Source: Escherichia coli (GTDB lineage: Bacteria; Pseudomonadota; Gammaproteobacteria; Enterobacterales; Enterobacteriaceae). From it: DNA of 35,113 nt. Both the position numbers and the translations under genes were made by a program. Under the pieces are notes generated by a model. The model was not told the DNA's origin. It saw only the letters and a program-made list of their open reading frames with translations, and ran no database searches. How positions within the stretch are numbered: position 1 is the stretch's first letter; the number at the start of each line of letters is the position of its first letter. The stretch lies in NCBI RefSeq assembly GCF_003334335.1, contig NZ_QOWQ01000044.1. One strand, written 5' to 3'. Below, piece by piece: positions 6,454 to 6,643 of this stretch.

Positions 6454-6550
6454 TTCAGTACCTCACGACTCGGACAAAATGTCGTTGCGCGCACAGTACA
6501 GCGCAACTTATTTTGTTAAAAACATGTAAATGATTTTTTATTGTGCGCTC

Positions 6551-6582
6551 AGTATAGGAAGGGTGTTTTCGGCTACAATCAA
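6551..6582 (-). promoter_or_regulatory. mhpA promoter (Pa): -10 TATACT with weak -35
   Basis: Minus strand reads TATACT at 6556-6551; weak -35 candidates TTGTAG or TTGATT at 6573-6582; spacing to the MhpR operator fits the reported -58 arrangement. Confidence 0.55.
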
Positions 6583-6594
6583 AACATGCCCGAA

Positions 6595-6611
6595 TGTGCA
6601 CCAGGTGCACC
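6595..6611. promoter_or_regulatory. MhpR operator (17-bp imperfect palindrome)
   Basis: tgtgcaccaggtgcacc is the reverse complement of the MhpR binding motif GGTGCACCTGGTGCACA as I recall it; centred about 58 bp upstream of the predicted mhpA transcription start. Confidence 0.75.
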
Positions 6612-6643
6612 ACGTTGTTTTAACTATAGAAATGTCAATTAAT

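Follow-up and report, generated by a model that had tools for sequence, protein, structure and literature searches.

Genes and coordinates of the mhp control region

The window, which is the whole stretch of 35,113 nucleotides that was analysed, contains the mhp and lac genes of Escherichia coli in an orientation opposite to the MG1655 numbering. The mhpA gene, the first gene in mhpABCDFE, and the regulatory gene mhpR are read away from each other, and the open reading frames of lacI and then lacZ follow downstream of mhpR. The product of mhpA matches the NCBIfam equivalog NF004827 at 1288 bits (cut-off 966), and that of mhpR matches NF007341 at 343.9 bits (cut-off 269). Against the PcaR/PcaU/PobR subfamily model, MhpR scores 126 bits, which is under the cut-off. 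The coding features are as follows.

4789–6453, minus strand: mhpA coding sequence, 3-(3-hydroxyphenyl)propionate hydroxylase, 554 aa (open reading frame, NCBIfam and RefSeq)
6460–6466, minus strand: putative ribosome-binding site of mhpA, GTGAGGT, 7–13 nt before the ATG (by position)
6644–7477, plus strand: mhpR coding sequence for an IclR-family activator of 277 aa (annotated by RefSeq in an identical record)

Since mhpA begins with an ATG at 6453 (minus strand) and mhpR with one at 6644 (plus strand), the intergenic region is 190 bp long (6454–6643). The earlier note on this DNA had described a divergent mhpR–mhpA spacer of this length; its coordinates are correct, and the RefSeq annotation of an identical K-12-derived record agrees with them. 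K-12-derived genomes, Stbl4 among them, match a 290-bp query that takes in the region with 100% identity. Among 5426 complete E. coli genomes, 4897 contain the query at an identity of at least 94%, and the annotation was always mhpA/mhpR. Window positions were converted by taking MG1655 as 374288 minus the window position, a relation fixed by the ArcA site of Park et al. 2013. The region is very probably the control region already described for the mhp genes of E. coli, which serve the catabolism of 3-(3-hydroxyphenyl)propionate (3HPP). This system is already known, and the control region of E. coli K-12 is of textbook level. The promoters of mhpA (Pa) and mhpR (Pr) have reportedly been characterised by footprinting, and the Pa/Pr region is said to have entries in RegulonDB and EcoCyc.

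The ribosome-binding block of mhpA, which reads ACCTCAC on the plus strand, is unchanged in the enteric alignment of 15 Escherichia, Citrobacter and Kluyvera sequences. The mhpR ATG of E. coli has no recognisable Shine-Dalgarno sequence upstream (6623–6643, CTATAGAAATGTCAATTAAT), and the mhpR orthologs of Kluyvera and Pseudomonas have AGGA or AAGGA at this place. The longest open reading frame of mhpR starts from an ATG at 6530 and encodes 315 aa. Published knockout and cloning primers for mhpR begin at ATG 6530, so this codon was evidently taken by others as the start of the gene. A deletion built on the ATG-6530 primer starts at 6580, takes out the MhpR operator and leaves the core of Pa. 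Loss of the operator in such a deletion could colour the reading of mhpR-deletion phenotypes and of mhpAB expression.

The MhpR operator

According to the literature, aromatic inducers stimulate the binding of MhpR to its operator; protection of the operator by purified MhpR, with 3HPP enhancing the binding, is likewise known from published work. The operator and a conserved block beside it lie in the mhpR-proximal part of the intergenic region.

6595–6611, no strand assigned: MhpR operator tgtgcaccaggtgcacc, centre 6603 (published motif and orthologs)
6613–6622, no strand assigned: T-rich block CGTTGTTTTA beside the operator, on the mhpR side (conservation)

Read on the opposite strand, the 17-mer tgtgcaccaggtgcacc is exactly the published MhpR operator GGTGCACCTGGTGCACA, the motif given for MhpR in a review of motifs of the IclR family (PMC8222616, Table 1, citing Torres 2003). 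The palindrome at 6595–6611, which the earlier note recognised as the MhpR operator, is identical letter for letter to the reverse complement of the published motif. Its core GTGCACCAGGTGCAC (6596–6610, 15 nt) is a perfect 7+1+7 palindrome composed of two self-complementary GTGCAC hexamers, 9 bp apart, and the outermost T and C of the 17-mer are unpaired. The exact 15-nt core occurs only once in the 35-kb window. Any perfect 7+1+7 palindrome was obtained in only 1.45% of shuffles of the 190-bp region, and the whole window contains two of them. The other one is CTGCAAATTTTGCAG at 33247–33261, which lies within a minus-strand open reading frame of 460 aa and is probably due to chance. The remaining inverted and direct repeats in the region are short, two-copy and without conservation, and they were treated as chance.

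The operator varies slightly among strains. The last operator base, at 6611, is C in K-12; it is A in four other sampled E. coli, in Escherichia sp. E1V33, in E. whittamii and in most orthologs, and with A at this position the 17-mer becomes a perfect palindrome. Strain S171-1 has a G>A change at 6596, within an operator hexamer. In E. coli Z1323HEC0011 (L002 493–525, equivalent to window 6596–6610), an insertion of 18 bp brings two extra copies of the 9-bp unit GTGCACCAG. This insertion results in four GTGCAC hexamers, or three overlapping operators, and pushes the mhpR start and the CRP-like site near it 18 bp farther from Pa.

A scan of representative genomes with the MhpR protein yielded 80 loci. 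The scan covers Escherichia, Citrobacter, Kluyvera, Edaphovirga, Shimwellia and Pluralibacter, and also Pseudomonas, Azotobacter, Marinobacterium, Zobellella and Nitrincola; with two E. coli records, the locus set amounts to 82. The mhpA gene is divergent from mhpR in 67 of the 82 loci, and all 67 divergent loci, from Escherichia to Pseudomonas and Nitrincola, carry the core GTGCAC-N3-GTGCAC. The distance from this core to the extrapolated mhpR start is 30–67 nt in these loci, and 30–44 nt in all save one. When the loci are stacked on the operator, the positions of the hexamers approach 2 bits each, while the three bases between the hexamers vary (TAA, CAG, TAG and others). The consensus of the operator family is TGTGCAC-YNR-GTGCACA, with the flanking T and A present in the majority. 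The T-rich block CGTTGTTTTA is unchanged in enterics and partly kept in Pseudomonas (TTG.TTTA). It could be an extended MhpR contact or a piece of the mhpR leader.

The mhpA promoter Pa

The elements of Pa are located on the mhpA side of the operator.

6573–6578, minus strand: Pa −35 hexamer TTGTAG, with a 16-nt spacer to the −10 (fixed offset in orthologs)
6551–6556, minus strand: Pa −10 hexamer TATACT (read in the sequence, with conservation)
6544–6545, minus strand: predicted start of the Pa transcript, 6–7 nt downstream of the −10

The two hexamers match those of sigma-70 in three of six (TTGTAG) and five of six positions (TATACT). A promoter scan of the region at the default thresholds of the tool gave no site, and no strong sigma-70 match was found on either strand of the region. 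The absence of a strong match fits activator-dependent promoters. The 5/6 hexamer TATACT is not significant by itself, and the Pa −10 is counted as real because it is kept at a near-fixed distance from the operator in orthologs. In 74 of 74 operator-anchored loci, the TTG of the −35 lies 25–27 nt from the operator centre. The −10 of the orthologs is TATACT, CATACT or TATAAT, and its distance from the −35 measures 16 nt in enterics, against 18 nt in pseudomonads. The string CAGTATA, which covers the Pa −10 region, is invariant in the 15 enteric sequences. The minus-strand −10 that had earlier been read as TATACT at 6556–6551 is there as described, and its position is conserved in orthologs. As judged from these alignments, the operator, the −35 and the −10 form a rigid module that is conserved from enterics to pseudomonads.

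The MhpR footprint is reportedly centred at −58 of the Pa start. The geometry of the palindrome and the −10 had been said to fit this value, and the fit holds within 1 nt but not exactly, the operator centre being at −58 from a predicted start at 6545 and at −59 from one at 6544. The coordinates of the Pa start and of the Pa CRP site were not found by a text search of the literature, outside which the primary papers lie (Torres 2003, Manso 2009). A literature search with DNA strings of the region gave only the knockout and cloning primers and the IclR review.

The −35 hexamer of Pa is part of the block GCTACAATCAAAACA (6572–6586), which is unchanged in the 15 enteric sequences. The pattern ACAA.GA.AA.C from this block is kept as far as Pseudomonas, which exceeds the need of a TTG −35. 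On the plus strand the block contains TACAAT, and on the Pa strand it gives a T-tract at −42 to −36. The block may be an extra contact of MhpR or of the polymerase alpha subunit, or it may be a second −10 of mhpR.

The mhpR promoter Pr and its CRP and ArcA sites

The earlier note did not mention Pr, its CRP site (6477–6498) or the ArcA site (6513–6544), all of which lie in the same intergenic region.

6477–6498, no strand assigned: CRP site of Pr, AAATGTCGTTGCGCGCACAGTA (Reg-Seq preprint annotation with the Park 2013 start)
6513–6544, plus strand: ArcA site TTGTTAAAAACATGTAAATGATTTTTTATTGT, made of three direct repeats at an 11-bp spacing (Park et al. 2013 supplement)
6517–6522, plus strand: candidate Pr −10 TAAAAA, with TG at 6514–6515 ahead of it

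A strong ArcA ChIP peak was found at mhpA/mhpR by Park et al. 2013 (PMC3798270), with a site at MG1655 367744–367775 that spans −23 to +9 of the mhpR start. This site corresponds to window 6513–6544, and the annotated mhpR start is therefore at window 6536. In the same study (PMC3798270), mhpR–lacI showed a 23.9-fold expression ratio in the arcA comparison, and mhpR is among the ArcA-repressed operons of the main text. The repeats of the ArcA site are TGTTAA, TGTAAA and then a weaker third one, and the strings TTGTTAA and ATGT.AA are kept in enterics. The site covers the core of Pr as well as positions +1 to +32 of the predicted Pa transcript.

The expression of mhpR is also under CRP regulation. 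CRP-like sequences were scored with a matrix built from 19 reference sites of the PredCRP supplement, whose own scores are 6.9–23.2 bits. The lac CRP site (8649–8670), which was kept out of the training and used as a positive control, scores 17.7 bits and ranks first in the window; its place at the top of the ranking indicates that the matrix works. The second-best score of the whole window, 12.0 bits, belongs to GAATGTGAAACCAGTAACGTTA at 7550–7571, just inside the start of lacI (GTG 7545). According to a 2025 preprint, lacI is repressed by CRP, whose footprint covers −6 to +22 of the lacI promoter.

For Pr, the Reg-Seq preprint annotates a CRP activator site at −59 to −38 of mhpRp2. Counted from the mhpR start at 6536, this gives 6477–6498, a placement that assumes the same annotated start in the Reg-Seq preprint and in Park 2013. 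The sequence there, AAATGTCGTTGCGCGCACAGTA, is in exact register with the second-best CRP score of the region (4.86 bits). It is conserved within Escherichia only and not in Citrobacter or Kluyvera. At 6482, inside this site, K-12 has T (TGTCG); C is found there in four other sampled E. coli (TGCCG) and makes a poorer half-site. The site falls within the leader of mhpA, at a distance of only 24 nt from the start codon of that gene.

The start of mhpR may differ slightly from the annotated one. In the Reg-Seq preprint, the −10 signal of Pr is near −20 of the annotated start and ArcA is bound around it. The −10 of Pr is probably TAAAAA, and the real mhpR start is probably near 6528. CRP is said (Manso 2011) to act at Pr from −40.5 as a class II activator, which fits a start near 6528. 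The supplement of Mendoza-Vargas 2009 contains an mhpR RACE primer only and no start site, and the Reg-Seq supplement has nothing on mhpR.

Alternative roles of the palindrome and of the conserved block

Because an mhpR start at about 6536 puts the palindrome in the transcribed leader of mhpR, it might act mainly as RNA, in the form of a hairpin, an attenuator or a terminator. A scan flags GTGCACCAGGTGCAC followed by CACGTTGTTT on the plus strand as terminator-like, and one paper proposes post-transcriptional up-regulation of mhpR under acid stress. However, the hairpin itself has little stability (−7.4 kcal/mol, z = −0.45), shuffles of the whole leader fold just as well as the leader does (z = −0.12), and the palindrome is not self-paired in the best fold. 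Among the 41 dereplicated, divergent, operator-anchored orthologs (41 of 74), the stem hexamers hardly vary and show zero compensatory changes, which points to protein–DNA recognition and not to RNA pairing. An Rfam search returned zero family matches. With folding like that of shuffles, no covariation and no Rfam match, the hairpin or attenuator was rejected, and a role mainly at the RNA level is highly improbable. A different proposal concerns the TACAAT on the plus strand (6574–6579), which could serve as the −10 of a second, back-to-back mhpR promoter beside the annotated Pr, with a class II CRP-like site at 6533–6554. This hexamer is part of the 15-nt block that enterics share without change, and 41 of 74 orthologs have a −10-like hexamer at its offset; at the other 33 loci, however, the hexamer is not −10-like (e.g. 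GACAAC), and the Pa −35 on the opposite strand, together with its flank, already accounts for the conservation. With 4.95 bits, the best CRP score of the region falls on a sequence whose centre, 6543.5, is about 41–42 bp upstream of the implied start, but CRP at 6533–6554 would cover the −10 and the start of Pa, which is a misfit with CRP activating Pa. In fluorescent pseudomonads the spacer is 119 bp and leaves little room for a promoter in the mhpA leader; for E. coli, the annotated mhpR start at 6536 stands against a second promoter. Such a promoter is considered unlikely in addition to Pr.

The CRP-like sequence at the mhpR start codon

A further CRP-like sequence lies upstream of the operator, as seen from Pa.

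6630–6651, no strand assigned: weak CRP-like 22-mer AAATGTCAATTAATATGCAGAA, TGTCA-N6-ATGCA (matrix score)

This 22-mer overlaps the mhpR ATG at 6644–6646. The earlier note had pointed to a weak CRP-like half-site pair around 6630–6651 that overlaps the mhpR start codon; the pair is present and does overlap it, but its matrix score of 1.27 bits is at chance level. Scoring the region with a CRP matrix, which the note itself had suggested as a check, did not favour the call: AAATGTCAATTAATATGCAGAA scores lower than all accepted sites, and outside Escherichia it is not conserved. By sequence alone, a CRP site at 6630–6651 is unsupported. It had also been argued that activator binding for mhpA would sit on top of the mhpR translation start. 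The overlap is true as DNA geometry, but translation happens on RNA. The relevant point of this placement is that the 22-mer lies inside the mhpR transcription unit.

We lean slightly towards AAATGTCAATTAATATGCAGAA being a functional, MhpR-assisted CRP site of Pa. MhpR is the 3HPP-dependent activator of Pa, and CRP binds Pa only when MhpR is present. If CRP needs MhpR at Pa, a poor CRP site beside the operator is expected, and the weak AAATGTCAATTAATATGCAGAA fits this expectation. The 22-mer is the best CRP-like match upstream of the operator, and its centre is 37.5 bp from the operator centre. The same spacing separates −58 from −95.5, which we take to be the annotated position of the Pa CRP site. 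In addition, Escherichia, Citrobacter and two of four Kluyvera retain the TGTCA half. It is also quite possible, though we do not favour it, that the pair at 6630–6651 is a chance match and that catabolite control of mhpA is exerted via the CRP site of Pr (6477–6498) and/or elsewhere. In that case, CRP at the Pr site would set the level of MhpR and/or MhpR-assisted CRP would bind at another position. The score of 1.27 bits ranks 182 of 35,092 positions, and about one such match is expected per 190 bp by chance. Compared with TGTGA-N6-TCACA, AAATGTCAATTAATATGCAGAA has 6 of 10 core bases, and of the four critical positions it has G5 and C18 only, without G7 or C16. At the same offset, scores are 1.3–2.8 in Escherichia and fall below zero in Citrobacter (−2.5 to −6.8) and Kluyvera (−4.4 to −15.2), and nowhere near the operator is a CRP-like position conserved among enterics. 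Moreover, Pr already has its own annotated CRP site. No mhp entry was found in the PredCRP supplement, and the ChIP-exo CRP supplement contains nothing on mhp. In the strain of the Footprint-seq study, the mhpR/mhpA region is deleted, so sites there are outside its assay.

Crossed arrangement of Pa and Pr and proposed mechanism

Since Pr, its CRP site and the ArcA site are on the mhpA side, Pa and Pr cross, and they are not a simple back-to-back pair. The 91-nt leader of mhpA contains Pr, the Pr CRP site and the ArcA site. The mhpR leader of about 108–116 nt contains Pa, the operator and the CRP-like 22-mer. By the predicted and annotated starts, the Pa and Pr transcripts are antisense to each other over their first 9–17 nt.

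According to the literature, MhpR binds at 6595–6611 and turns on Pa when 3HPP is present. Pa is a weak sigma-70 promoter reading leftwards into mhpA, and published work has CRP-cAMP add catabolite control, binding there only together with MhpR. Transcription of mhpR itself depends on CRP at Pr, for which published annotations give a start at about 6536 and a CRP site at 6477–6498, and ArcA on 6513–6544 is reported to repress the mhpR operon. With an mhpR start at about 6528–6536, polymerase coming from Pr must read through Pa, the MhpR operator and the CRP-like site. It is conceivable, if rather improbable, that the complex of MhpR, CRP and polymerase at Pa hinders transcription of mhpR and read-through into lacI, either as a roadblock that depends on inducer and cAMP or by promoter interference. 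If true, this roadblock would be a negative feedback that has not been described so far. In published work, Pr is reportedly independent of MhpR.

Relation to known systems and significance

The mhp Pa/Pr of E. coli K-12 is the same locus as the one described here, with 100% sequence identity and with the operator and flanking genes alike. This region is said to be the subject of Torres et al. 2003 (J Biol Chem 278:27575) and of work by Manso et al. (2009, 2011). Like MhpR, the regulators PobR and PcaU of Acinetobacter and PcaR of Pseudomonas belong to the IclR family, and they likewise have a palindromic operator in a short divergent spacer. Their half-sites are of the GTNCG/CGNAC type, whereas that of MhpR is GTGCAC. 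The operators of PcaU and PobR have a third half-site in direct repeat; in the ortholog stack, no third half-site of this kind was found at the MhpR operator. The IclR-family review (PMC8222616) places MhpR in the motif class of PobR, PcaU and PcaR.

Two further E. coli promoters are comparable with respect to CRP. The lac promoter is a CRP-dependent catabolic promoter like Pa, and its CRP site is of class I, at −61.5. In contrast to the mhp 22-mer (1.27 bits), the lac site is strong (17.7 bits) and binds CRP alone. At the melAB promoter, MelR recruits CRP to a weak site and activation is synergistic. MhpR is reported to be needed for CRP at Pa in the same manner as MelR is for CRP. However, MelR is an AraC-family protein and MhpR an IclR-family protein, and the proposed mhp CRP site is upstream of a single MhpR operator, at about −95.

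As a discovery, these results carry little weight. The operator and −10 named in the earlier note are correct, and the putative CRP site is no better than chance by sequence. A further useful outcome is the operator/−35/−10 module, whose conservation from enterics to pseudomonads makes it a portable and well-defined 3HPP-responsive part for biosensor design.
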